From Labilithrix sp. (GTDB lineage Bacteria; Myxococcota_A; Polyangia; Polyangiales; Polyangiaceae): a stretch of 32,000 nt of DNA. The DNA lies in contig JAHBWD010000035.1 of the NCBI GenBank assembly GCA_019637175.1, forward strand, positions 5,341 to 37,340, in the 5' to 3' direction. Position numbers and translations under genes: made by a program. Positions 13,919 to 23,621 of the stretch are shown piece by piece (position 1 is the first letter of the stretch; the number at the start of each line of letters is the position of its first letter). The notes below the pieces were generated by a model. The model searched no databases. It saw only the letters and a list, made by a program, of their open reading frames with translations, and was not told the origin of the DNA.

Positions 13919-14024
13919 GCCTTGGCGAGAGAGCGCGGTAGCAGCGCGCACGAGCTTCCCAAGAATCTCGTTTGAAGCGTGTCTCATCGGAGCGTCGGAT
14001 CGATCACTTTCGTGATTTAAAACC

Positions 14025-14053
14025 TTGCGAAGGCCGAAACGGCGCGCTATAGC
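14025..14053 (+). promoter_or_regulatory. candidate sigma-70-type promoter (TTGCGA-N17-TATAGC)
   Basis: Hexamers with a 17-nt spacer read directly, in a locally AT-richer stretch. No experimental support. Confidence 0.3.
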
Positions 14054-14438
14054 TTGAATGCCGCTCCCGTCTGGAGCGTCGAAGAGCAGCAACCAGAACC
14101 TCCAGGAGGCCGCGGAAAGCCCGCGGTGACTGCCCCGTGATCCTCTCCCTTCAACGAACCTGTACGGAATCGCGAGCGCTGACGCGCTTGGCCGGTCTCC
14201 GTGCGGGCTTCGTGGGGCGAGGTCTTCGGCAGGCCTCGCTCCCGTGGCATCGGGCGTATCGCTCGCGCCTCGTCTCCGTCCCCGTCTTCGGCGGCAGCTC
14301 CGGTTTCATCACGAAGCCTGGGCGCCGCATGTCCACCCTCACCTCGATCTCGCTCGATCCGAGCGCGAATGCAGAGCAGGAGGGATCCCCCTAGCGGTCC
14401 TCGTACCATCTCCTTCACAGGGAGCAGGTGTCGAAAGG

Positions 14439-14467
14439 CCGCCCGGGGTTACCCCGAGGCGGTTTTC
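14439..14467 (+). terminator. hairpin plus short T-run (possible intrinsic terminator)
   Basis: ccgcccgggg-tta-ccccgaggcgg followed by tttt. Confidence 0.45.
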
Positions 14468-14757
14468 GTCGTTTCTGCCCCTCGATTTGCGGCGCCTTCC
14501 CAACGCCCAGCCCTAGACGGCTGGGCCCGGAGCGGCGCGGATCGGCGCCCTTGGCGCCCCATCGCGGTCGATCGCGCGGTCCTCTGGCCTCGCGCTCGCG
14601 CTCTGGACGGCAAGGGAGATCGCAGCCCGAAGGTCGGCGCCCCGCTCGGGGTTCGCCGAAACAGTACGAGTTTGTCTAGGAGAATCAATCATGCTTCTCA
14701 AGCTTGGAATCTAGTCATGAAGGCCCGACTCAAACGTAGTTCTTTCGTCCGCCACGC

Positions 14758-14831
14758 GGGACGCTAGCTCAATCGGAACGAGCACCGGGCTTTTACCCCG
14801 AGGGATGAGGGTTCGACTCCCTCGCGTCCCA
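14758..14831 (+). tRNA. tRNA-Lys(TTT)
   Basis: Acceptor gggacgc/gcgtccc. D stem gctc/gagc. Anticodon loop ctTTTac. T-loop ttcgact. No encoded CCA. Confidence 0.8.
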
Positions 14832-14887
14832 CAGCCTCCGTCCGTCTTCTCTCTCTCGTTCACGCGCTCTCACGAGCGCGCGATCGC

Positions 14888-14961
14888 GGGTCCGTAGCGC
14901 AACCGGCAAGCGCACTCGACTCTTAATCGAGGTGGTGAGGGTTCGAGTCCCTCCGGACCTA
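14888..14961 (+). tRNA. tRNA-Lys(CTT)
   Basis: Acceptor gggtccg/cggacct. Anticodon stem ctcga/tcgag, loop ctCTTaa. T-loop ttcgagt. Confidence 0.8.
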
Positions 14962-14984
14962 CGGGCGACGTCCGTCGCCGACAC

Positions 14985-15059
14985 TCCGGGATCGTCTAGC
15001 TGGCAGGACACTGGCCTCTGAACCCAGAAACACAGGTTCGAATCCTGTGCCCGGAACCA
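14985..15059 (+). tRNA. tRNA-Gln(CTG)
   Basis: Acceptor tccggga/gcccgga (7-66 mismatch). Loop ctCTGaa. T-loop ttcgaat. CCA encoded. Confidence 0.65.
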
Positions 15060-15163
15060 AGGCTCTCCTCTTTCGAGGGAGCCCTCGCTCTCTGAAAACT
15101 TGGCGCCAATCGACTCGTCCGCGCGCGCGGAGCGCGAGCTTCACGCTCGCGGGCGAGTCTCAT

Positions 15164-15236
15164 TCCAGCGAAGCCGAATGGTCAGGCAGCCGGCTGTTAA
15201 CCGGTCCCTTCGAAGGTTCGATTCCTTCCGCTGGAG
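15164..15236 (+). tRNA. tRNA-Asn(GTT)
   Basis: Acceptor tccagcg/cgctgga. Anticodon stem gccgg/ccggt, loop ctGTTaa. T-loop ttcgatt. Confidence 0.75.
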
Positions 15237-15239
15237 CTC

Positions 15240-15371
15240 TCGCCCTCTCGGCAGAGGCCCTACACGCACCTGGTGATGCTGGTTCGACTCCAGCCCACGG
15301 CTTCGGCCGCGGTCGTCCAACGGCAGGACCCCCGAATGTCAATCGGAACGACGGCTTCTCCACTCGGGCGA
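15240..15371 (+). ncRNA. structured module A: permuted tRNA-like RNA (candidate Y RNA)
   Basis: Closing stem tcgccc/gggcga. Box ccctacacgca at 15258-15268. The order is then: T-arm gctgg-ttcgact-ccagc; acceptor 3' strand ccacggc; ttcg loop; acceptor 5' strand gccgcgg; D-arm gtcc/ggac; hairpin with loop atGTCaa. Confidence 0.5.
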
Positions 15372-15376
15372 AAACT

Positions 15377-15447
15377 GCCCATGTAACTCGATGGTCGAGC
15401 ACCCGCCTCGTACGCGGTGTGAGCCGGTTCGACTCCGGACGTGGGCT
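15377..15447 (+). tRNA. tRNA-Thr(CGT)
   Basis: Acceptor gcccatg/cgtgggc. Loop ctCGTac. T-loop ttcgact. Confidence 0.7.
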
Positions 15448-15452
15448 CTCGT

Positions 15453-15618
15453 TTCATCCACCCGAACAGACCCTACACGCAAAAACAAAGTTGGTTCGAC
15501 TCCAACCGCCTACCCCGACGGCCCTGCAAGGCCGTCTCGCATCACGGTGGGCGTAGCCTAACGGTAAGGCAATCGTTTATTGGACGATAATCCCACCCGG
15601 TTTGCTCACTCGGATGGA
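15453..15618 (+). ncRNA. structured module B: permuted tRNA-like RNA (candidate Y RNA)
   Basis: Closing stem ttcatcc/ggatgga. Box ccctacacgca. T-arm gttgg-ttcgact-ccaac. An 8-bp acceptor-like stem cgcctacc/ggtgggcg is capped by a 31-nt insert containing its own hairpin. D-arm gcc/ggc. Hairpin atcgt-ttattgg-acgat. Confidence 0.5.
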
Positions 15619-15796
15619 ACGCATCCTCTCCCCGCCGCGTACGGCGGGTCCCCTTTCAATCCGGCCGCTATAACGTTGCGCCTCGCGCGCAGCCCCGCCG
15701 TCGGATCCTGCCCCGCCGCGAGCTTCGTCGGCGCGGGTCTCGTCTCATCAGGAGGCTGGCGCGTGAGCGCAAGCCGCGCCGCCTCCGACCTCTTCC

Positions 15797-15868
15797 GCCC
15801 ACGCAGCTCGAGAGCCGAGCGTCCTGGCTTGTACCCAGGAAGATCTGGTGCGACTCCAGACGTGGGCT
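15797..15868 (+). tRNA. tRNA-Thr(TGT), non-canonical elbow
   Basis: Acceptor gcccacg/cgtgggc. Anticodon stem cctgg/ccagg, loop ctTGTac. T-loop tgcgact (G55). D-loop gagagcc lacks GG. Confidence 0.6.
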
Positions 15869-15883
15869 CCGCCGAAATCCTCT

Positions 15884-15958
15884 ACCCCCGTCATCTAGCG
15901 GCAAGGAGCTCCGTCTTTCAATCGGAGGGCGTCGGTTCGAATCCGATCGGGGGTGCCA
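15884..15958 (+). tRNA. tRNA-Glu(TTC)
   Basis: Acceptor acccccg/cgggggt. Loop ctTTCaa. T-loop ttcgaat. CCA encoded. Weak D stem. Confidence 0.7.
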
Positions 15959-16034
15959 GGGCTGTGAGCTGGTCGCAGGATAGCGTCTGCCTGAAGAGCA
16001 GAAGAACGTGGTGCAAGCCCACGACAGCCCACCA
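15959..16034 (+). tRNA. tRNA-Phe(GAA)
   Basis: Starts directly after the preceding CCA. Acceptor gggctgt/acagccc. Anticodon stem tctgc/gcaga, loop ctGAAga. T-loop tgcaagc (G55). CCA encoded. Confidence 0.7.
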
Positions 16035-16116
16035 TCGAAAGCTCGATATCGTCGATATCGAAGAACGACGAACATCGCACTTGCAAAGTGAGGTAGCGAG
16101 ACACATATGAATGTAC

Positions 16117-16189
16117 GGTGGCGTTACTCGTCTAGTGACGAGGACTGGCCGTGACCCAGTGGAGGCGGGTGCAATCCCCGTACGTCACC
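16117..16189 (+). tRNA. tRNA-His(GTG) with G-1, C33 and G55
   Basis: G-1 lies opposite C73. Acceptor gtggcgt/acgtcac. Anticodon stem actgg/ccagt, loop ccGTGac. T-loop tgcaatc. D-loop tctagtga. Confidence 0.7.
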
Positions 16190-16326
16190 CCTCAGCCGCC
16201 GAGCTTCGTTCGGCGACTTCGTCCCTCTCTCGTGGGAGCTTCGCTCCCCTCATCGGCGAAGCCGATGAGCCTCCTCTCCTTCGCCTGCGGCGAAACCGAG
16301 CTTCGCTCGGCAGGAGAGGCATCCAG

Positions 16327-16398
16327 GTCCTCGTGGCCGAGCGGATAGGCAGCGGTTTCCTAAACCGCCACAGGCAGGTTCGAGTCCTGCCGGGGACG
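16327..16398 (+). tRNA. tRNA-Arg(CCT)
   Basis: Acceptor gtcctcg/cggggac. Anticodon stem gcggt/accgc, loop ttCCTaa. T-loop ttcgagt. Confidence 0.75.
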
Positions 16399-16423
16399 CG
16401 ACACGCAACGAAACGATTCTCAC

Positions 16424-16495
16424 GCCTCGTGATGCGCCCGGCGGCGCAACCCCACTGTCTATGGGACGAGACGGGTTCGACTCCCGTACGAGGCG
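16424..16495 (+). tRNA. tRNA-Asp(GTC)
   Basis: Acceptor gcctcgt/acgaggc. D stem tgcg/cgca. Loop ctGTCta. T-loop ttcgact. Confidence 0.75.
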
Positions 16496-16501
16496 CTGCA
16501 T

Positions 16502-16575
16502 GCGTCGCAGAGTCATGGTGACCGGCCGAGCCTCCAAAACTCGGAGAGAGGGTTCGATTCCTTCGCGACGTGCCA
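16502..16575 (+). tRNA. tRNA-Trp(CCA)
   Basis: Acceptor gcgtcgc/gcgacgt. Loop ctCCAaa with a 31-39 C-A mismatch. T-loop ttcgatt. CCA encoded. Poor D-arm. Confidence 0.65.
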
Positions 16576-16588
16576 GAGGTGACCGTTC

Positions 16589-16792
16589 ATGACGACCTGC
16601 ACCTTCTGCTCGGGCCCCGCGCATCCCTCCACGGGCTGCGTGTACGGACCGAGAACCCTCGCGTGCCGCGCGTGCACCGTCCGCTTCTGGACGTGGCTCC
16701 GCCAGCACGTGAACAAGGCTCCTCGCCGCCGCCCTGGCCGCGTGGTCCCTTCCCTCACGTTCTACGAGGCCGCCACGAAGTGGCGAGCCTAG
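16589..16792 (+). CDS. small Cys-rich (zinc-ribbon-like) hypothetical protein
   Basis: 67 aa. CxxC...C...CxxC pattern (CTFC, C17, CRAC). GAGGTG Shine-Dalgarno-like sequence about 8 nt upstream of the ATG. Sits between tRNA-Trp and tRNA-Ala. Confidence 0.55.
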   Translation: MTTCTFCSGPAHPSTGCVYGPRTLACRACTVRFWTWLRQHVNKAPRRRPGRVVPSLTFYEAATKWRA

Positions 16793-16816
16793 GCCGACGG
16801 ACCTCCGCGGCCATCT

Positions 16817-16890
16817 GGGGCGGTATTTCAATAGGAGAATTCTGCTCTCGCACAGCAGGGATCGGGGTGCAATTCCCCGTCGCTCCACCA
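16817..16890 (+). tRNA. tRNA-Ala(CGC)
   Basis: Acceptor ggggcgg/tcgctcc with G3-U70. Anticodon stem ctgct/agcag, loop ctCGCac. T-loop tgcaatt (G55). CCA encoded. Confidence 0.7.
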
Positions 16891-16902
16891 GACATCACGA
16901 AT

Positions 16903-16975
16903 GGGGTCGTAGCTCAGCCAGGAGAGCATCTCGATGGCATCGAGAAGGTTGCCGGTGCAATTCCGGTCGACTCCA
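16903..16975 (+). tRNA. tRNA-Ala(GGC)
   Basis: Acceptor ggggtcg/cgactcc with G3-U70. Anticodon stem tctcg/cgaga, loop atGGCat. T-loop tgcaatt (G55). Confidence 0.75.
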
Positions 16976-17003
16976 CGAAGTACATATTCACGAATACCCA
17001 TAC

Positions 17004-17078
17004 GCTGGCATCGTCCAAGAGTGAGGACCTCAGTCTTCCAAACTGATGATGAGGGTGCGAATCCCTCTGCCCGCTCCA
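17004..17078 (+). tRNA. tRNA-Gly(TCC)
   Basis: Acceptor gctggca/tgcccgc (3-70 mismatch). D stem gtcc/ggac with loop aagagtga. Loop ctTCCaa. T-loop tgcgaat (G55). U73 and CCA present. Confidence 0.7.
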
Positions 17079-17231
17079 CTCTCCTCTTCCCCTGCTCTTC
17101 TGGCCCCGGCGCGCTCCGCGCGACGGTTCGCCGAAGGCGAAAGGGGGGAGGACTCCACGCGCAGCGTGGAGGGGGGACGCAGTCCCCCACGAGACAGAAG
17201 GAAACGAGAGCGCGCAGCGCTCTCGCTTTTC

Positions 17232-17302
17232 GAGCCGATTCTCTGAGAGGTCCGTGGTCTGCAAAACCGCGTATGAGGGTTTGATTCCCTCTCGGCTCTC
17301 CA
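17232..17302 (+). tRNA. tRNA-Cys(GCA)
   Basis: Acceptor gagccga/tcggctc. Anticodon stem gtggt/accgc, loop ctGCAaa. T-loop tttgatt (U56). U73 and CCA present. Weak D-arm. Confidence 0.65.
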
Positions 17303-17322
17303 AAAAGGAAATCATGACGAGC

Positions 17323-17395
17323 GGATCACGACGGGATGGTTACCCTGGGCTCTCTGATAAGGAGCCTGCACCGTGTTCGATTCACGGGTGATCCA
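17323..17395 (+). tRNA. tRNA-Ile(GAT)
   Basis: Acceptor ggatcac/gtgatcc. D stem cggg/cctg. Loop ctGATaa. T-loop ttcgatt. Confidence 0.8.
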
Positions 17396-17415
17396 CGACG
17401 AGCTCCACGAGAGAT

Positions 17416-17488
17416 GCGGCGCTGGCGGTCTAGTGACTGCGCTTGCTCGACAAGCAGGAACAGGCGGGTGCGATCCCCGCGCGCCGTA
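17416..17488 (+). tRNA. tRNA-Val(GAC) with C33 and G55
   Basis: Acceptor gcggcgc/gcgccgt. D stem gcgg/ctgc with loop tctagtga. Anticodon stem cttgc/gcagg, loop tcGACaa. T-loop tgcgatc. Confidence 0.65.
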
Positions 17489-17495
17489 CCGAGAG

Positions 17496-17567
17496 CTGGG
17501 CATAGTTCAGAGGCCAGATCACTCCCCTCGGAAGGGAGAGACGGAGGTTCGAGTCCTCCTGCCCAGA
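17496..17567 (+). tRNA. tRNA-Pro(CGG)
   Basis: C1-G72 acceptor ctgggca/tgcccag. Anticodon stem ctccc/gggag, loop ctCGGaa. T-loop ttcgagt. A73. Confidence 0.8.
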
Positions 17568-17577
17568 CTGATTTCAC

Positions 17578-17650
17578 GCCGATGTAGCCCAATAGGCAGA
17601 GGTACCCGTCTCAGAAACGGGGGGTGAGGGTTCGAATCCCTCCTTCGGCA
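17578..17650 (+). tRNA. class-I (short variable loop) tRNA with Leu anticodon CAG
   Basis: Acceptor gccgatg/cttcggc (6-67 mismatch). D-arm gcccaataggcagagg. Anticodon stem cccgt/acggg, loop ctCAGaa. Only 4-5 nt variable region. T-loop ttcgaat. A73. Confidence 0.55.
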
Positions 17651-17666
17651 CTACGTCTCTCGAAAT

Positions 17667-17750
17667 GTCACCGTGGTGGAACGGCATACACACCAGCTTG
17701 AGGTGCTGGGCTCCCTACGGAGTGTGAGGGTTCGAATCCCTCCGGTGACA
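17667..17750 (+). tRNA. tRNA-Leu(GAG), class II
   Basis: Acceptor gtcaccg/cggtgac. Anticodon stem ccagc/gctgg, loop ttGAGgt. Long variable arm ctcc-ctac-ggag. T-loop ttcgaat. Confidence 0.8.
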
Positions 17751-17843
17751 CTACTGGCGCGCGCATCCCCGAAACGACTCTTCTCTGCTGATCCCGAACC
17801 TTGCTCCTCGAAGGAGATGAAAGTGAAAAAGCGAAGGTGACCC

Positions 17844-18377
17844 ATGCAAACGCTGATGCTGACCCCGTGGATGGCGCCGCACAAGATCATCTCGTGGCAA
17901 CGCGCCGTCGTTCTCGCGTACCTCGGCAAGGTCGAGGTCATCGAGACTTGGGACTGCGATCTCCGCGGCCCCAGCGTCTCGATGAAGGCGCCGTCCGTCG
18001 TGCGTCTCACGAAGGGGTCGGTCTCGACGAAGCAGTCGGTGCGCTTCTCGCGCATCAACGTCTTCACGCGTGACAAGTTCCGCTGCCAGTACTGCGGCGA
18101 GCGGAAGCCCATCAAGCAACTGAACTACGACCACGTGATCCCGCGCGTGCGCGGCGGAAAGACGGTCTGGGAGAACATCGTCACTTCCTGCTACGCGTGC
18201 AACGATCGCAAGGGGAGCCGCACTCCCGAGGAGGCCGGCATGAAGCTGCTCCGCAAGCCGCTCAAGCCGGACACCCTCCCCGTGGTGCCGCCGATCCGCC
18301 TCGACGAGGGTGACCTGCCCGAGCAATGGGAGCCGTACTGCGGCGACCTGGCTCGGCTGATGTCCCTCTCGGCGTGA
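17844..18377 (+). CDS. HNH endonuclease (small McrA-like family)
   Basis: 177 aa. CQYCG...YDHVIPRVRGGKTVWENIVTSCYACNDRK, an HNH/ββα-Me motif with two CxxC pairs. AAGGTGA Shine-Dalgarno upstream of the ATG. Confidence 0.85.
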   Translation: MQTLMLTPWMAPHKIISWQRAVVLAYLGKVEVIETWDCDLRGPSVSMKAPSVVRLTKGSVSTKQSVRFSRINVFTRDKFRCQYCGERKPIKQLNYDHVIPRVRGGKTVWENIVTSCYACNDRKGSRTPEEAGMKLLRKPLKPDTLPVVPPIRLDEGDLPEQWEPYCGDLARLMSLSA

Positions 18378-18460
18378 AAGCGCTGCGCCCGTCATCCGAC
18401 GTGCGCTCCCGCGTCCTGGCCCAAGACGAAATAAACTGGGCCTCCTATTCTTCAAACGAT

Positions 18461-18535
18461 CAGGGCGTAGCTTAGCCTGGCAAAAGCGTCAGTCTGGGGG
18501 ACTGAAGAGCGCAGGTTCGAATCCTGCCGTCCTGA
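18461..18535 (+). tRNA. tRNA-Pro(GGG)
   Basis: Acceptor cagggcg/cgtcctg. D stem gctt/aagc. Anticodon stem tcagt/actga, loop ctGGGgg. T-loop ttcgaat. Confidence 0.8.
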
Positions 18536-18548
18536 CTACGTCGATATC

Positions 18549-18631
18549 GGAAGGTACATCCGCGAGGCGCGGAGATCGCCTGGAACGCGATTCGCACCGC
18601 CAGGTGCGAGGTTCGAGTCCTCTGCCTTCCT
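18549..18631 (+). tRNA. tRNA-Ser(GGA), class II
   Basis: Acceptor ggaaggt/gccttcc. Anticodon stem atcgc/gcgat, loop ctGGAac. Variable arm cacc-gcca-ggtg. T-loop ttcgagt. Confidence 0.7.
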
Positions 18632-18656
18632 CTGCTCTCGACTGCATCCTCGAAAC

Positions 18657-18741
18657 GGAAGAGAAACTGGCTGGGAGCCAGGACTGCCTCGAAAGCAGTA
18701 CGCACCTTCACGGGTGTGGGGTTCGAGACCTCTCTCTTCCT
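18657..18741 (+). tRNA. tRNA-Ser(CGA), class II
   Basis: Acceptor ggaagag/ctcttcc. D stem ctgg/ccag. Anticodon stem actgc/gcagt, loop ctCGAaa. Long variable arm. T-loop ttcgaga. Confidence 0.7.
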
Positions 18742-18758
18742 CTCTCGCCTCTCTTTTT

Positions 18759-18831
18759 CTCCTTGCTGGTGGCTCCAGGCATTGGTCTACGAAGCCGATT
18801 TTCCCAGGTTCGATTCCTGGCAGGGAGACCA
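18759..18831 (+). pseudogene. degenerate tRNA-like element (anticodon arm not foldable)
   Basis: Good acceptor ctccttg/cagggag, T-arm ccagg-ttcgatt-cctgg and CCA. The anticodon arm pairs poorly and the variable region is only 2-3 nt. Confidence 0.4.
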
Positions 18832-18838
18832 ACGATTT

Positions 18839-18973
18839 CGATCGCCCATCCCGAACGTGCCTACAAGCAACCGTCCTGAAAAGACGGGGAACACGAAACG
18901 TCCGAGCCCTCGAAGCGTCGAGCGCTCCGACGTTTCGTGATCCCTCCCAACGCACGATCGACTCGGGCGATCG
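18839..18973 (+). ncRNA. structured module C (box-containing, no T-arm)
   Basis: 9-bp closing stem cgatcgccc/gggcgatcg. atcccgaac plus box cctacaagcaa. Anticodon-arm-like hairpin ccgtc-ctgaaaa-gacgg. A 15-bp hairpin at 18892-18939. Confidence 0.45.
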
Positions 18974-18980
18974 CAAAAAT

Positions 18981-19053
18981 ACCTTCGTCCTGGCGGAATC
19001 CAGGCGCGAGCCTCCGAAGCTCGTTGCTCCCGGTTCGACTCCGGGCGGAGGTG
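18981..19053 (+). tRNA. tRNA-Arg(CCG)
   Basis: Acceptor accttcg/cggaggt. D stem ctgg/ccag with a 6-nt loop. Anticodon stem cgagc/gctcg, loop ctCCGaa. T-loop ttcgact. Confidence 0.7.
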
Positions 19054-19057
19054 CTGA

Positions 19058-19132
19058 CGCAGCGTGGGGGAGGAGCGACCCCGCGAGGTTCATGTCCTCG
19101 AGACGCCGGTGCGACTCCGGCCGCTGCTACCA
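19058..19132 (+). tRNA. tRNA-Met(CAT), 1-72 mismatch (initiator-like?)
   Basis: Acceptor cgcagcg/cgctgct with C1 opposite U72. D stem gggg/cccc. Anticodon stem cgagg/cctcg, loop ttCATgt. T-loop tgcgact (G55). CCA encoded. Confidence 0.65.
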
Positions 19133-19134
19133 AG

Positions 19135-19262
19135 GTCATCCAAATACGCCGAGCCTACACGCAACTTGATTCGTCCAATGGATAGGACATCAGCCTCCTA
19201 AGCTGAGCGTCTGGGTTCGAGTCCCAGATCAACCCCCCTCGCGCTCGTCGATCTCGGATGAC
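19135..19262 (+). ncRNA. structured module D: box plus normal-order tRNA-Arg(CCT)-like core (candidate Y RNA)
   Basis: Perfect 7-bp closing stem gtcatcc/ggatgac. Box cctacacgcaa abuts position 3 of a tRNA-like core at 19164-19235 (D stem gtcc/ggac, loop ctCCTaa, T-arm ctggg-ttcgagt-cccag). The core retains only 5 acceptor base pairs. Confidence 0.5.
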
Positions 19263-19270
19263 CTTCCTAT

Positions 19271-19347
19271 GTTTCCGTCGTCTAGACGGCCAAGGACACC
19301 CGCCTCTCAAGTGGGTAACACGGGTTCGAATCCCGTCGGAAACGCCA
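19271..19347 (+). tRNA. tRNA-Glu(CTC)
   Basis: Acceptor gtttccg/cggaaac. Anticodon stem cccgc/gtggg, loop ctCTCaa. T-loop ttcgaat. CCA encoded. Confidence 0.8.
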
Positions 19348-19392
19348 AACCCCAACATCCACGCCCACCACTGGCCCAGAAAGGAGAGAACC

Positions 19393-20982
19393 ATGGCAAA
19401 CAAGCAGCTATTCGCGAGCCCGCGACCGGACGCCGTCAACGAAGCCGGCGGCTTGGCCTACGCGTTCTCTCCCGAGCACGCGCTCGCCCAGTACGCCGCG
19501 ACCGGCACGTTCCACGGGACGTTCTACGCCAGCGACAAAGAGCAGCTCGATCGCGTGTCCGCGTTTGCCAGCGCGTGCTCGCCCGAGCTCGTCGCCAAGA
19601 CCGCCGTCTACTGTCGCGAGCGCGGCAGGATGAAGGACATGCCGGCGTTCCTCGTCGCCCACCTCGCGGCCCGCGACACCGCGATGATGAGCCGGGTGTT
19701 CGCTCGGGTCATCGACGACGGCGTCATGCTCCGCAACTTCGTGCAGATCGTCCGCTCGGGCGTCACCGGCCGAAAGTCGTTCGGCTCGGCCCCCAAGCGC
19801 GCGCTCCGTGCGTGGTTCGCGAGCCGCTCGCCCGACGCGATTTTTCGTCAGTCCATCGGTCAGAGCCCGTCCATGTCGGACGTCATCAAGATGGTTCGCC
19901 CTCCCCCGCGGAACGACAAGGGCGAAGCCGATGCCGTTCGTGAGGCCCTCTACGGCTACCTCATCGGAAAGAACGTGGATCCGGACAAGCTCCCCGCGCT
20001 CGCGCGCGCCTTCGAGGCGTGGAAGCGCAGGACCGGCGGCCTGCCCGACGTGCCCTTCGAGATGCTCACCTCGCTCCCCTTGAGCGCGGAAGACTGGAAG
20101 GCGCTCGCGCGTCGGATGACGACGAATCAGCTCCGGATCAACCTCAACACGCTCCTCCGTCACGGCGTCCTCGACGACCCCGAGATGGTGGACTCCGTGG
20201 CGGCCCGCCTGTCGGACCGCGAGGCGATCCTCCGGGCGCGCATGATGCCGTTCCAGCTCCTCGCCGCGTATCGCGGCGTCGAGGCGCGGATGCCGACGCG
20301 CATCGTCACGGCGATCGCGACGGCGCTCGAGCACGCGGTGTCGAACGTCCCCGAGCTCGTCGGGCGCGTCGTGCTCTGCCCCGACGTGTCGGGATCGATG
20401 CAGTCGCCCGTGACGGGTCACCGCGGGAGCGCGACCACGAAGGTGCGCTGCGTCGACGTCGCGGCCCTCGTGACCGCGGCGATCCTCCGGAAGAACCCGG
20501 GCTCGTCGGTCATTCCGTTCTCCGACGACGTGGTCCCGATGACGAAGCCTCTCGATCCGGGCGGCTCGATCGTCGAGAACGCGGAGATCCTCGCGAGCCT
20601 CCCGAGCGGCGGCACCGCTTGCTCGGCGCCGCTCCGCTGGCTCAACGCGAACGGGAACGCGCCCGACGTCGTCGTCTTCGTCTCGGACAACCAGTCGTGG
20701 TCGGACTTCCGACACCCTTCGCGATCCGCCACGAGCGGCACCGCGATGGCGGAGGAGTGGCAACGCCTTCGGGGCAGGAACCCGAACGCCAAGCTGATCC
20801 TCGTCGACGTCCAGCCCTACGGCACGACGCAGAGCACCTCGCGCGACGCCAAGGGCGAGCGCGACGACGTGCTCGACGTCGGCGGGTTCTCCGACGCGGT
20901 CTTCGACGTCGTCGCGTCGTTCACGCGCGGCGAGCTCGGCGGAGACACGTGGCTTCGCGCGATCGAATCGATCGCGCTCTAG
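19393..20982 (+). CDS. rsr: Ro60-related TROVE-domain / vWA protein (Rsr)
   Basis: 529 aa from MANKQLFAS. The N-terminus is TROVE-like (NEAGGLAYAFSPEHALAQYAATGTFHGTFY). C-terminal vWA MIDAS motif CPDVSGSM. AAGGAGAG Shine-Dalgarno at 19381-19388. Confidence 0.85.
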   Translation: MANKQLFASPRPDAVNEAGGLAYAFSPEHALAQYAATGTFHGTFYASDKEQLDRVSAFASACSPELVAKTAVYCRERGRMKDMPAFLVAHLAARDTAMMSRVFARVIDDGVMLRNFVQIVRSGVTGRKSFGSAPKRALRAWFASRSPDAIFRQSIGQSPSMSDVIKMVRPPPRNDKGEADAVREALYGYLIGKNVDPDKLPALARAFEAWKRRTGGLPDVPFEMLTSLPLSAEDWKALARRMTTNQLRINLNTLLRHGVLDDPEMVDSVAARLSDREAILRARMMPFQLLAAYRGVEARMPTRIVTAIATALEHAVSNVPELVGRVVLCPDVSGSMQSPVTGHRGSATTKVRCVDVAALVTAAILRKNPGSSVIPFSDDVVPMTKPLDPGGSIVENAEILASLPSGGTACSAPLRWLNANGNAPDVVVFVSDNQSWSDFRHPSRSATSGTAMAEEWQRLRGRNPNAKLILVDVQPYGTTQSTSRDAKGERDDVLDVGGFSDAVFDVVASFTRGELGGDTWLRAIESIAL

Positions 20983-21061
20983 CGATCGAGACAACGCGGC
21001 AAATGCCCGCGAGGGTTACATCCTCGGGAAAACCACCTTCGCGACCTTCGTTGCCGCCCTT

Positions 21062-21117
21062 GCTCCTCCTCACGAAAGGTCTTCACGGGAGCTCATTGAG
21101 GAGGAGCCATTCTTTTT
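21062..21117 (+). terminator. hairpin plus T-run downstream of rsr
   Basis: 11-bp stem gctcctcctca/tgaggaggagc with a 24-nt loop, followed by cattcttttt. The next tRNA starts 2 nt later. Confidence 0.6.
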
Positions 21118-21118
21118 C

Positions 21119-21191
21119 GCCGTCCACGCCCAGAGAGCGGGGCACCTCACTGGTAGCGAGGACAAGGAGGGTGCGAGTCCCTCGGACGGCT
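21119..21191 (+). tRNA. tRNA-Thr(GGT)
   Basis: Acceptor gccgtcc/ggacggc. D stem gccc/gggc with loop agagagcg. Loop ctGGTag. T-loop tgcgagt (G55). Confidence 0.7.
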
Positions 21192-21202
21192 CGAATCGTT
21201 TT

Positions 21203-21276
21203 GCGGTGATAGTTCAAGAGTAGAACCTGAGCACGCCACGCTCGAAATCCGGGTGCGATTCCCGGTCACCGCTCCA
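21203..21276 (+). tRNA. tRNA-Gly(GCC) with C33 and G55
   Basis: Acceptor gcggtga/tcaccgc. D stem gttc/gaac with loop aagagta. Anticodon stem tgagc/gctcg, loop acGCCac. T-loop tgcgatt. U73 and CCA present. Confidence 0.65.
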
Positions 21277-21339
21277 GCGCCGAGTCCCCTGCCGTTCACC
21301 GGAGAAGGTGTCGTCGGGGGGCCACGCGCTTCCACTCTT

Positions 21340-21412
21340 CGCTGCGCTCCTGGGCAGGACGACGGGCTTCATATGCCTGCGCGCGACGGCTCGACTCCGT
21401 CCGCAGCGACCA
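21340..21412 (+). tRNA. tRNA-Met/Ile2(CAT), aberrant D-arm
   Basis: Acceptor cgctgcg/cgcagcg. Anticodon stem cgggc/gcctg, loop ttCATat. T-loop ctcgact (C54). CCA encoded. The D region is only 14 nt. Confidence 0.55.
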
Positions 21413-21418
21413 CGACAT

Positions 21419-21490
21419 ACCGGAGTGTTCCAAGGGCAGGATCGGCGGCTTTGAACCGCTCGAGTGGGGGTTCGAATCCCTCCTCCGGTG
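21419..21490 (+). tRNA. tRNA-Gln(TTG)
   Basis: Acceptor accggag/ctccggt. Anticodon stem ggcgg/ccgct, loop ctTTGaa. T-loop ttcgaat. Confidence 0.75.
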
Positions 21491-21497
21491 CGAACGC

Positions 21498-21573
21498 GCG
21501 GGGCGCGCCGTCTGGCGACGGCATCTGCATCACAAGCAGCGCAAGGAGAGTTCGATCCTCTCGCCCCGTACCA
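21498..21573 (+). tRNA. tRNA-Val(CAC)
   Basis: Acceptor gcggggc/gccccgt. D stem gccg/cggc. Loop atCACaa. T-loop ttcgatc. CCA encoded. Confidence 0.75.
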
Positions 21574-21595
21574 CGAATGGAAGATTGGTCTTCGA

Positions 21596-21671
21596 GTCGA
21601 CGTAGCCCAACGGCAGAGGCAGCACGCTCAAACCGTGCGTGATGGGGGTTCGAATCCCTCGGTCGACACCA
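21596..21671 (+). tRNA. class-I (short variable loop) tRNA with Leu anticodon CAA
   Basis: Acceptor gtcgacg/ggtcgac (7-66 mismatch). D-arm gcccaacggcagaggc. Anticodon stem gcacg/cgtgc, loop ctCAAac. 5-nt variable loop. T-loop ttcgaat. A73 and CCA present. Confidence 0.55.
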
Positions 21672-21813
21672 TGGGTTCGAATCCCATGAAGCACCTCGCG
21701 AGGACGCCGGCGCGTCACGCGGAAGCCTCGAGCAGCGGCCTGTTACGCCGCACACGCTCGAGGGCCTTCTCCGCGCGACGTCCGCTCGTCGTTTCCGCAG
21801 CGAGATCCGCTTG

Positions 21814-21956
21814 CTGGTTGCCAGTCGCGCGACTGAAACTCGTGCACGTGTTTGACGCAGGTTCGAATCCTGTCGCCCGCACCGCTCGCTCGCGCGAGCC
21901 CTCCGAAATCATGCGGGCGTAGCTCAGCTAGGTAGAGCAACAGACTGTTAATCTGA
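21814..21956 (+). ncRNA. module E: third permuted tRNA-like locus
   Basis: The order is: hairpin cgcga-ctgaaac-tcgtg; T-arm gcagg-ttcgaat-cctgt; 3' strand cgcccgc; 32-nt cap; perfectly complementary 5' strand gcgggcg; D-arm gctc/gagc; hairpin acaga-ctgttaa-tctga. Confidence 0.4.
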
Positions 21957-22215
21957 AAACGAAGTCGGCGAAGGAAGTCACCCCCCTCTCGAGAGAGAGG
22001 CGCGCTCCCGTCCCGCGATCGAAGCCGCCCTGCCGCAGCTCCGCGGTCGTCCCTCGAAGACCACCGCGAAGCGCCGGCCGACGCCCCTCGATCGCTCGCC
22101 GGCGAGCACGTCGCCCGAACGTGATGGCTTCGAGGCGTTCACGTTCTTGGGTGCCTTCCTTCGAAGGCTCTCCTCCTTCTCTTCTCTTCTCATCTCCTCC
22201 AAGAGGCCACCCACC

Positions 22216-23352
22216 ATGATGAAGATTCTGTTCGTGGATCTCGACGAGCGCGTCGTGGTCCTCCGTCGTGGCCTCCCGGTTCGTGCCCTCGGACCTGGTC
22301 GCCACATCCTGTGGGGCTTCGGCATCACCGAGCGTCGGTGGTCGACCGCGCCCCTCGTGTTCGAGATGCAGCCCGCGCTCCGCGCCGCGCTGCCGCCCGA
22401 CTCTTTCCACGAGATCACGCTCACGCCGAGCGAGCGCGCGATCCTCTGGCGCGACGGCCGTCCCAAGGTCTTCCTCGGCCCCGGCGTCCACCGGTACTGG
22501 GAGGTCGACGACCCGCTCCACGCGCAGGTCATGTCGGTCCACGACGAGATGCCCGAGCTCTCCGCCGAGCTCGCGTCGATCATCCCGCGCGACCAGTACG
22601 TCGAGGTCACCGTGCAAGAGCACCAGCGCGGCCTCCTCCACGTGAAGGGCAAGCTCGCCCGGACGCTCGCGCCCGGTCGCTACACCTTCTGGTCGACGCG
22701 CGAGTCGCCCGTCGCCGTCCAGAGCGTCGACATGCGCGTCGTGCAAGCCACGATCGCGGGCCAGGAGCTCATGACCAAGGACAAGGTCACGCTCCGGCTC
22801 ACCCTCACGGTCGAGTACGCCGTCGAGGATCCGGCCGTCGCCACCCACGCGGTGGAGAACGTCCGCGACGCGATCTACCTGCTCGTCCAGCTCGCCAGCC
22901 GCGAGTTCGTCGCCGGCGTGACGCTCGACGACCTGCTCGCCGGCCGCGACGCGATGACGAAGTACCTCGAGGACGACGTCGCTGGAAAGGCGCGTCGCTT
23001 CGGCGTGCGCGTCGAGCGCGTCGGCGTGAAGGACGTCGTGCTCCCGGGCGAGATGAAGACGCTCCTCAACAAGGTCATCGAGGCCGAGAAGGAAGCGGCC
23101 GCGAACGTCATCCTCCGTCGTGAGGAGACGGCCGCGACGCGCTCTCTGGCGAACACCGCCAAGCTCATGGCCGAGCAGCCGCTGCTCCTGCGGCTGAAGG
23201 AGCTCGACTCGCTCAAGGAGATGGCGGCGAAGATCCACGAGATCAAGCTCGTGGCCTTCGCTCCGGGCATGAACGCGTCGGGCATGAACGCGCTCGTGCC
23301 CTCGGGCTTCCTCGGCCCTGGCCCGGAGGCCTCCTCCAAGGGAGAGGCGTGA
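22216..23352 (+). CDS. SPFH/band-7 (slipin-like) domain protein
   Basis: 378 aa from MMKILFVDL. Central SPFH pattern (TKDKVTLRLTLTVEY...GVRVERVGVKDVVLP) followed by a coiled-coil-like tail. AAGAGG lies upstream. Confidence 0.8.
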   Translation: MMKILFVDLDERVVVLRRGLPVRALGPGRHILWGFGITERRWSTAPLVFEMQPALRAALPPDSFHEITLTPSERAILWRDGRPKVFLGPGVHRYWEVDDPLHAQVMSVHDEMPELSAELASIIPRDQYVEVTVQEHQRGLLHVKGKLARTLAPGRYTFWSTRESPVAVQSVDMRVVQATIAGQELMTKDKVTLRLTLTVEYAVEDPAVATHAVENVRDAIYLLVQLASREFVAGVTLDDLLAGRDAMTKYLEDDVAGKARRFGVRVERVGVKDVVLPGEMKTLLNKVIEAEKEAAANVILRREETAATRSLANTAKLMAEQPLLLRLKELDSLKEMAAKIHEIKLVAFAPGMNASGMNALVPSGFLGPGPEASSKGEA

Positions 23353-23362
23353 CACGTGAACG

Positions 23363-23399
23363 GCCGGGATCTTCTGAAAAGAAAATCCCGGCGTTCTTT
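23363..23399 (+). terminator. hairpin plus T-rich tail after the SPFH gene
   Basis: gccgggat...atcccggc stem followed by gttcttt. Confidence 0.55.
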
Positions 23400-23533
23400 G
23401 GAAGTCAGACCGCAGAGGTTGCGGGCCCGGTTGCTACCCGGTGCGTACCCGAGTCGTTCGGGTATGGCGTTCGAGTCGCCTGATTTCCGCTCGATTTCGA
23501 CGTTCGGCGCCAAGTCTTCGGAGACGCTCGACT

Positions 23534-23621
23534 GGATCGGACGCGGTACTGGCTGGCCGCACGTGGCTGTAACCCACGTTCTTTCACGACACTGGGGGTT
23601 CGAATCCCTCCCGATCCACCA
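23534..23621 (+). tRNA. tRNA-Tyr(GTA), class II
   Basis: Acceptor ggatcgg/ccgatcc. D stem gcgg/ccgc. Anticodon stem cgtgg/ccacg, loop ctGTAac. Long variable region. T-loop ttcgaat. A73 and CCA present. Confidence 0.85.

Follow-up and report, generated by a model that had tools for sequence, protein, structure and literature searches.

The stretch of DNA analyzed here (the window) comprises 32,000 nucleotides (nt) from Labilithrix sp. (contig JAHBWD010000035.1, positions 5,341 to 37,340 of the forward strand). Inside an array of tRNA genes on its + strand lie two elements, A (15240–15371) and B (15450–15621), which are very probably paralogous Y RNAs of the YrlA class and would be partners of Rsr, the Ro60 orthologue encoded 4 kb downstream. 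The assignment as Y RNAs is supported because rsr lies on the same strand at that distance, because the Rfam YrlA model matches A, albeit below its threshold, and because all helices as well as the tRNA tertiary pair 15:48 covary. Both elements carry a tRNA-like domain in circularly permuted order, which is not novel in itself: the YrlA topology was described as a circularly permuted tRNA mimic in 2014 and again in 2018 (PMC4201824; 10.1101/312249). The subfamily to which A and B belong is nevertheless a new structural variant of YrlA, set apart by an anticodon-like arm, a closing stem at the variable-arm position, an invariant box and multiple copies within a tRNA array.

Anatomy of the Two Elements

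All features described below are on the + strand. The ends of A form a bipartite closing stem that is supported by folding and covariation. Its 5' strand (15240–15259) consists of P1, UCGCCC (15240–15245), an internal loop, UCUCGGC, and P2, AGAGGCC (15253–15259), while its 3' strand (15353–15371) consists of GGCUUCU (15353–15359), a conserved CCACUC loop and GGGCGA (15366–15371), with 15240–15245 pairing to 15366–15371 and 15253–15259 to 15353–15359. The motif scan and the alignment place the box C-CUACACGCA(C) at 15259–15269, and its CUAC corresponds to the YUAY motif of Chen 2014. The tRNA-like domain then begins with the T arm GCUGG-UUCGACU-CCAGC (15278–15294; sequence, covariation) and the acceptor-like stem, in which the 3' strand CCACGGC (15295–15301) comes first and is joined through a UUCG cap (15302–15305) to the 5' strand GCCGCGG (15306–15312; sequence, fold, covariation). 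After UC (tRNA positions 8–9) follow the D arm GUCC-AACGGCA-GGAC (15315–15329; sequence, covariation), which has the D-loop GG, and the anticodon-like hairpin CCGA-AUGUCAA-UCGG (15332–15346; fold), the sixth helix of the family, in which all five aligned pairs covary. A first-pass annotation of this DNA had given the order from T arm to acceptor 3' strand, UUCG, 5' strand, UC, D arm and hairpin for A, and we find every element in its place, with six of the seven acceptor positions paired and a single mismatch at A15297/C15310. The long closing stems formed by the flanks of A and B had not been described there.

Element B has the same architecture, and its acceptor stem is 8 base pairs (bp) long, made of the usual 7 bp plus G-1:C73. 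Its closing stem pairs 15450–15459 with 15612–15621 and 15467–15472 with 15599–15604, and the box C-CUACACGCAA lies at 15472–15482 (motif scan, alignment). Folding and covariation support the remaining elements, in conjunction with the sequence itself for the first of them: the T arm GUUGG-UUCGACU-CCAAC (15490–15506), the acceptor 3' strand CGCCUAC(C) (15507–15514), the acceptor 5' strand (G)GUGGGCG (15546–15553), UA followed by the D arm GCCU-AACGGUA-AGGC (15556–15570) and, one A further on, the anticodon-like arm AUCGU-UUAUUGG-ACGAU with 5 bp and a 7-nt loop (15572–15588). The 31-nt insert between the acceptor strands (15515–15545) folds as a hairpin of its own. That B repeats the order of A with an 8-bp acceptor and a 31-nt insert had already been proposed; all of these elements are located, and the eighth acceptor pair (alignment columns 68/165) covaries too. 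The one anatomical detail that did not hold is the claim of an identical 9-nt distance between box and T stem in both elements. With a 5-bp T stem starting at G15490, the distance is 9 nt in A and 8 nt in B, and because it ranges from 2 to 10 nt in homologues, this spacing is not a conserved feature.

It is also important to consider whether B could be read as a tRNA gene. ARAGORN calls a tRNA-Asn(AUU) at 15546–15638, which is an artefact on the 5' half of B, and the Rfam tRNA model reaches only 27.4 bits (15547–15610) with the T arm absent; B does not have the canonical tRNA arm order. A role of B as a stand-in for tRNA-His, suggested by G-1:C73 and the GGUGG start, was rejected, as tRNA-His(GUG) is encoded at 16118–16191 and N-1:N73 is general to all types of the family.

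Exact copies of the box CCTACACGCA stand at 15259, 15472 and 19154. If one mismatch is tolerated, the number of matches rises to six against 0.72 expected, a count that none of 100 shuffles reaches. In its 10-nt form, CUACACGCAA, the box is essentially invariant in the aligned family members, in its 11-nt form it reads CCUACACGCAA, and the CUAC inside it fits the YUAY that is conserved where the variable region starts. Between box and T stem runs a linker of 2–10 nt across homologues, while on the other side 6–16 nt connect the hairpin after the D arm to the closing stem. Pairing of the box with this 3' linker was considered and rejected, as the linker lacks both conservation and a complement to the box. 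Within the closing stem the 3'-strand motif CACUCGG is likewise essentially invariant, and most members have G-N-Y-CGA-R on the opposite, 5' strand of the loop, a motif similar to the GGUCCGA core of vertebrates cited in Chen 2014 (PMC4201824); the version in B is A-CCCGAAC.

Folding, Homologues, and Covariation

To describe the family beyond the window, loci with relatives of Rsr were fetched (n = 13, Rsr identity 56–82%). The box is present in 7 of these 13, and there the box and all family members are confined to the strand of rsr and to positions upstream of it. Fourteen full members from Labilithrix-like myxobacteria were aligned with MAFFT without structural guidance (alignment A1). On A1 the proposed structure gives 93.3% paired cells, compared to 29–49% when the 3' partners are slid by 1–3 columns, and changes on both sides are seen in 22 of 35 pairs, including all seven of the acceptor stem and all five of the hairpin after the D arm. 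RNAalifold, applied to the plain MAFFT alignment, recovers the same six helices de novo and adds a covarying eighth acceptor pair, N-1:N73, while the minimum free energy folds contain all helices of A (z = -1.67) and of B (z = -3.19). It is clear that the permuted design is far beyond chance. Both kinds of calculation return the helices of the proposed structure rather than unrelated folds, and the complementarity of the acceptor strands, on which the first-pass annotation had staked its reading, is kept in the relatives, with seven of seven pairs covarying among the 14 homologues.

Compensation is also found within an orthologous group, where CGCCUAC/GUGGGCG in the window corresponds to CCGGUAC/GUGCCGG at locus L007. 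Because such changes occur within orthologous groups, the acceptor pairing has been selected and not merely inherited from different tRNAs. The inserts between the acceptor strands (4–95 nt) are hypervariable in both length and sequence between orthologues.

The tertiary signature of tRNA is retained as well. Among 22 members, U8 is found in 19, A14 in 21, the D-loop GG in 21 and the UUCGAnU T loop in all 22, and the Levitt pair 15:48 covaries, being A:U in 9/22 and G:C in 6/22. Together with the folds and the covariation of the helices, this pair supports the earlier proposal that the natural tRNA termini are joined, with the anticodon-like arm and the variable region on either side of the new ends.

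A covariance model built from A1 (R1) finds approximately 23 strong members, three to five per genome, and scores A at 112 bits and B at 144 bits. In metagenomes the pattern CTACACGCA-N(4-26)-GGTTCGA retrieves 120 loci, of which R1 confirms four (L034, L053, L091 and L104); the remainder are chance matches. As a separate observation, two elements of one Labilithrix metagenome-assembled genome (MAG; L013, 6446–6605 and 6713–6877) have exchanged the 7-nt T loop for 30 nt of other sequence, UGCCCGCACCCGGACCACCGCGGCGA.., while their architecture is otherwise intact.

Comparison with Known Y RNAs

The proposed protein partner is a 529-residue product of rsr (19393–20982, +), which has an AGGAG ribosome-binding site and matches the Pfam families vWA_Ro60 and TROVE. 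Its top match among solved structures is Deinococcus radiodurans Rsr (PDB 2NVO, E = 3e-21, residues 15–515). The gene begins 4.0 kb downstream of A and 3.8 kb downstream of B, and all three are on the + strand. Rfam YrlA (RF02553) aligns to A over its full length with 25.1 bits (E = 0.007 in 901 nt). The earlier suggestion of a tRNA-mimicking Y RNA is strengthened by the downstream rsr on the same strand, by this sub-threshold match and by the covarying helices.

Described YrlA Y RNAs (RF02553; Chen et al. 2014; Wang et al. 2018, PDB 6CU1) lie at most 4 kb from rsr on the same strand, and their long stem contains a GNCGAA-type motif similar to GGUCCGA of vertebrates. Their variable region opens with a conserved YUAY and is followed by a T arm, a closed acceptor-like stem, UA and a D arm, and the 15:48 pair covaries (PMC4201824; 10.1101/312249). 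The A/B family agrees with them in its position near rsr on the same strand, in a closing stem of 5' and 3' ends, which in most members has a CGA(A)-type motif, in the YUAY that follows it, and in the order of variable region, T arm, closed acceptor stem, UA and D arm. Further shared features are the T loop, the D-loop GG, U8/A14 and the covarying 15:48 pair; in both groups it is the T and D arms that are conserved, and the acceptor, anticodon and variable parts that change.

In the A/B family a local anticodon-like stem-loop stands 1–2 nt after the D arm, which puts the exit of the closing stem at the variable-region position. In the Rfam consensus and the Salmonella structure, an anticodon loop is absent and the stem runs on from the anticodon stem; in the Rfam consensus the D stem abuts the long-range stem. 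The A/B family further has the extended invariant 10-nt box CUACACGCAA, conservation of both loop strands of the closing stem (CACUCGG on the 3' strand), acceptors of 7–8 bp with inserts of up to 95 nt, T- and D-stem sequences of its own, and three to five paralogues per genome within a tRNA array, all at sub-threshold Rfam scores.

Other relatives each share part of this design. The YrlA of Mycobacterium smegmatis resembles B in having a 7-bp acceptor stem within a permuted tRNA-like Y RNA and a C-rich trailer completable to CCA. That RNA is cleaved and CCA-tailed, whereas here such processing is putative only, an extra covarying N-1:N73 pair is present and A has no insert. In D. radiodurans, Yrn1 and Yrn2 are made together with tRNA-Asp (PMC4201824), a co-transcription of Y RNAs with a tRNA that the present locus recalls, and both strands of the Ro60-binding helix are recognizable there as here. 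Yrn1 is also drawn with an anticodon-like arm, and its non-permuted arm order is similar to that of element C, described below, but it has no full D arm and its anticodon-like loop has 6 nt; the Rfam search found no sequence similarity to Yrn1 or Yrn2.

A number of points weigh against placing A and B in the YrlA class. The Rfam YrlA scores stay below the gathering score of 69, and B and the homologues at L007 have no match at all. The T- and D-stem sequences (GYYGG, GCCU/AGGC) depart from the near-invariant ones of YrlA, and neither the Rfam consensus nor the Salmonella structure has the local anticodon-like hairpin. In A, the closing-stem loop has a degenerate 5' strand (CUCGGC). Opening of the cap is uncertain given the covarying N-1:N73, and the N73-CC trailer is not commoner than in the tRNA genes of the array (16/18 vs. 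165/248).

The principle is unchanged by this subfamily, in that a permuted tRNA mimic bound to Ro60 was already known. No described YrlA retains as much of the tRNA, here a full acceptor stem, a tRNA-like trailer and an anticodon-like arm, and the subfamily sits among approximately 38 tRNA genes, where it coexists with variants that share its scaffold. Most of its members escape the Rfam model, and a tRNA is wrongly called on part of B. As a class, bacterial Y RNAs are still little understood. The features just named make the subfamily useful material, both for testing an origin of YrlA from dimeric tRNA transcripts and for finding the tRNA-binding factor that the domain may recruit.

Proposed Processing, Fold, and Function

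Anatomy, covariation and synteny are directly established; what they imply for Rsr binding, processing and effector function we infer as follows. A is directly preceded by tRNA-Asn (15164–15236, +), and tRNA-Thr(CGU) (15377–15447, +; Rfam tRNA 36 bits) separates A from B. The gaps between these genes and the next spacer are filled almost exactly by the two elements, which leaves spacers of 2–6 nt between Y RNAs and neighboring tRNAs. Probably, the Y RNAs are transcribed with the surrounding tRNA genes and released by RNase P and the tRNA 3'-end enzymes during maturation of the flanking tRNAs. The RNase P cut at the 5' end of tRNA-Thr would generate the 3' end of A, and 3' processing of the same tRNA would generate the 5' end of B.

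In the fold, the 5' and 3' ends pair into the long bipartite stem of P1 and P2, and the internal loop between them, whose strands read G-N-Y-CGA-R (5') and CACUCGG (3'), is presumed to be the Rsr-binding module. The stem would bear an L-shaped tRNA-like domain made of the variable region, the T arm, the acceptor (3' strand first, closed), the D arm and the anticodon-like arm. Topologically, this is a circularly permuted tRNA body from which the presumed Ro60-binding stem emerges at the site of the variable arm. The tRNA-like domain may serve as the effector end, either by protecting the RNA or by recruiting a tRNA-binding factor or an exonuclease such as PNPase, as proposed for YrlA.

The two elements differ at the cap. 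With its UUCG tetraloop and no trailer, A must stay permanently closed. Variable inserts and tRNA-like N73-CC trailers are present in B and in most relatives; RNase P may open these, with completion to CCA, as in the YrlA of M. smegmatis. The RNA would then consist of two pieces, and the acceptor stem and closing stem would keep them joined. The first-pass annotation had remarked that a two-piece product of this kind was undescribed in bacteria, but this has a precedent, namely the YrlA of M. smegmatis, which has a 7-bp acceptor. There, RNase P cuts the cap at the expected site, the 5' piece gains CA in vivo to complete CCA, and both pieces remain bound to Rsr (PMC4201824).

As a refinement of the Y RNA assignment for B-type members, RNase P might cut 5' of the acceptor 5' strand and the insert might be trimmed to N73-CC and extended by A, which would give a nicked, CCA-tailed and possibly aminoacylated tRNA-like Y RNA. 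Apart from the mycobacterial precedent (Chen 2014, PMC4201824), this is suggested by the 7-bp acceptor stem stacked directly on a 5-bp T stem, by the spacer-like inserts, hypervariable between orthologues at 4–95 nt, and by N-C-C at the start of 16/18 long inserts. N-CC is equally typical of the tRNA genes of the array (165/248, 67%) and may just have been inherited, and we rejected these trailers as a distinctive sign of selection for CCA completion. In addition, the covarying N-1:N73 lengthens the helix to 8 bp, and an extended acceptor stem is reported as a hindrance to RNase P (PMC9433436), which makes cap opening uncertain. A and its orthologues, with 4–7-nt caps and no trailer, are not processable in this way, and the anticodon triplets vary among orthologues (AUU, AUU, AUG and ACG), which argues against decoding. 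We treat the two-piece form as a tentative option that is somewhat less likely than not. A bolder extension would see complete tRNA bodies (7-bp acceptor, D arm, anticodon arm and T arm) with a Ro60 stem at the variable-arm position, nicked and aminoacylatable, that tether Rsr to synthetases, EF-Tu or ribosomes, and would see in the locus living intermediates in the birth of Y RNAs from tandem tRNA genes; this seems improbable.

Alternative Explanations

The position of the elements between tRNA genes, with spacers of 2–6 nt, is what would be expected if they were only tRNA-like processing punctuation, i.e., RNase P and RNase Z signals in a polycistronic array transcript, with no partnership with Rsr. 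Such signals are already supplied by the neighboring tRNAs, and punctuation leaves the invariant 10-nt box, the bipartite stem resembling a Ro60 site and the linkage to rsr unexplained, and we regard it as very improbable.

Tandem duplication of tRNA genes could also leave non-functional debris, in which junctions survive while the outer halves decay. Some of the data have this flavor: junctions of adjacent true tRNAs give partial matches to R1 (model positions 42–138), weak matches which we set aside as not being Y RNAs, an element near rsr (E, below) looks like the junction of a tRNA-Asn(GUU) dimer, and some acceptor stems are identical to those of tRNA-Asn genes in the array. Decaying junctions would not be expected to show the compensatory changes within orthologous groups given above for the window and L007, nor to keep a closing stem, box and CACUCGG that are not derived from tRNA in genomes where Rsr is only 56–69% identical, nor to conserve strand and position relative to rsr. 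Debris of this sort is a highly improbable source of A and B.

In the permuted tRNA genes of Cyanidioschyzon merolae and Thermofilum pendens, as in A and B, the 3' half is encoded first and the acceptor end is initially a closed loop; the transcripts are circularized and then reopened to functional tRNAs. Those genes carry a bulge-helix-bulge motif, i.e., 3-nt bulges flanking a 4-bp helix, which is cut by the splicing endonuclease to yield decoding tRNAs, whereas A and B have no such motif and are linked to Ro60. Although the upstream 3' half, the complementary acceptor strands and the anticodon-like arm with its 7-nt loop would suit a gene of this kind, it is very unlikely, and hardly credible, because there is no bulge-helix-bulge (the termini lie in a 14–17-bp bipartite stem with a P1 of 6–10 bp, an internal loop of approximately 5 nt per strand and a P2 of 6–7 bp), because anticodons are not conserved (AUU, AUU, AUG and ACG in B-type orthologues, with some 6-nt loops in other types) and because the array already supplies tRNAs for all 20 amino acids; furthermore, bacteria are not known to possess the splicing endonuclease (Wang 2018, 10.1101/312249), and the acceptor of A is mismatched, closed by a tetraloop and without a discriminator. 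Neither are the elements split tRNAs of the Nanoarchaeum type, as their halves are contiguous on one strand, 4–95 nt apart, and not separate loci.

Other Elements on the Same Scaffold

Three further elements accompany the Y RNAs A and B. Element C (19134–19263, +) has a closing stem of the A/B type and the box CCTACACGCAA, but its tRNA-like body is in normal order, and ARAGORN reports it as tRNA-Arg(CCU). It contains a D arm (GUCC/GGAC), a CCU anticodon arm and a T arm, with an acceptor of only 5 bp, and Rfam tRNA matches positions 3–68 only. A counterpart in L005 (9738–9868) has the same design with a GCA anticodon. C may be a Y RNA with a Yrn1-like arm order that shares its scaffold with the permuted ones. 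Element D (18839–18973, +; z = -8) also has a closing stem of the A/B type, together with a one-mismatch box (CCTACAAGCAA) and, after it, two hairpins, one small and the other long and nearly perfect. It lacks a tRNA-like domain and resembles Y RNAs of the YrlB type; homologues are found in L005 (9503–9651) and L003 (9322–9471).

Element E (21821–21973, +), a third permuted tRNA-like element, stands between rsr and a gene for a Band-7/SPFH domain protein (22147–23352, +), which follows it directly. It is the best Rfam YrlA match in the window (41.8 bits, E = 4e-7, 21829–21971), still below the gathering score of 69. Its order is T arm, CGCCCGC, ACC with a 32-nt insert, GCGGGCG, D arm and an anticodon arm with CUGUUAA. 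Its box and closing stem are degenerate, and it resembles the place where two tRNA-Asn(GUU) genes meet. L011 has an equivalent element a short way downstream of rsr, to which Rfam YrlA gives 57 bits.

A published model derives YrlA from dimeric tRNA transcripts (10.1101/312249), and Band-7 proteins have been reported in association with tRNA-like RNAs (b7a-tRNA), RtcB and Rsr/YrlA (cited in Wang et al. 2018, 10.1101/312249). Elements C, D and E fit such an origin and recall the link between Rsr/YrlA and Band-7; RtcB was not found among the long open reading frames (ORFs) of the window scanned with Pfam. A single scaffold of closing stem and box carries three kinds of insert in the window (a permuted tRNA body in A and B, a non-permuted one in C and a hairpin in D). 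On the improbable reading given above, in which the locus keeps living intermediates in the birth of Y RNAs, this would mean a modular exchange between the tRNAs of the array and the Y RNAs.

Genomic Setting

The window has a G+C content of approximately 70%, and its nearest relatives are genome bins and MAGs of Labilithrix/Polyangia (myxobacteria). The tRNA gene array extends over approximately 14758–23621 of the + strand, with rsr embedded inside it and ordinary chromosomal genes on its flanks. ARAGORN finds 31 tRNA genes with default settings and approximately 38 with relaxed settings, and all 20 amino acids are represented. The arrangement is kept in related Labilithrix-like genomes (248 tRNAs at 8 loci), and a full-text literature search found no paper that combines Ro60 or Y RNA with "tRNA array". 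A promoter and terminator scan of 14000–16400 gave nothing above the shuffled expectation and is uninformative on either.

An ORF for an HNH endonuclease (17844–18377, +; Pfam HNH_5, E = 4e-17) occupies a 700-nt gap within the array and hints at a mobile or phage-like history of the latter. A phage origin was rejected, as megablast of 14700–16100 against phage records gave no match, the flanks are chromosomal and the nearest relatives are the MAGs named above. Many tRNAs of the array are non-canonical, some of them with UGCGA or UGCAA T loops, and score low with Rfam. On the antisense strand of true tRNAs, sub-threshold matches to Rfam Plastid-ycf2 appear (e.g., 15165–15236, -), which are artefacts.

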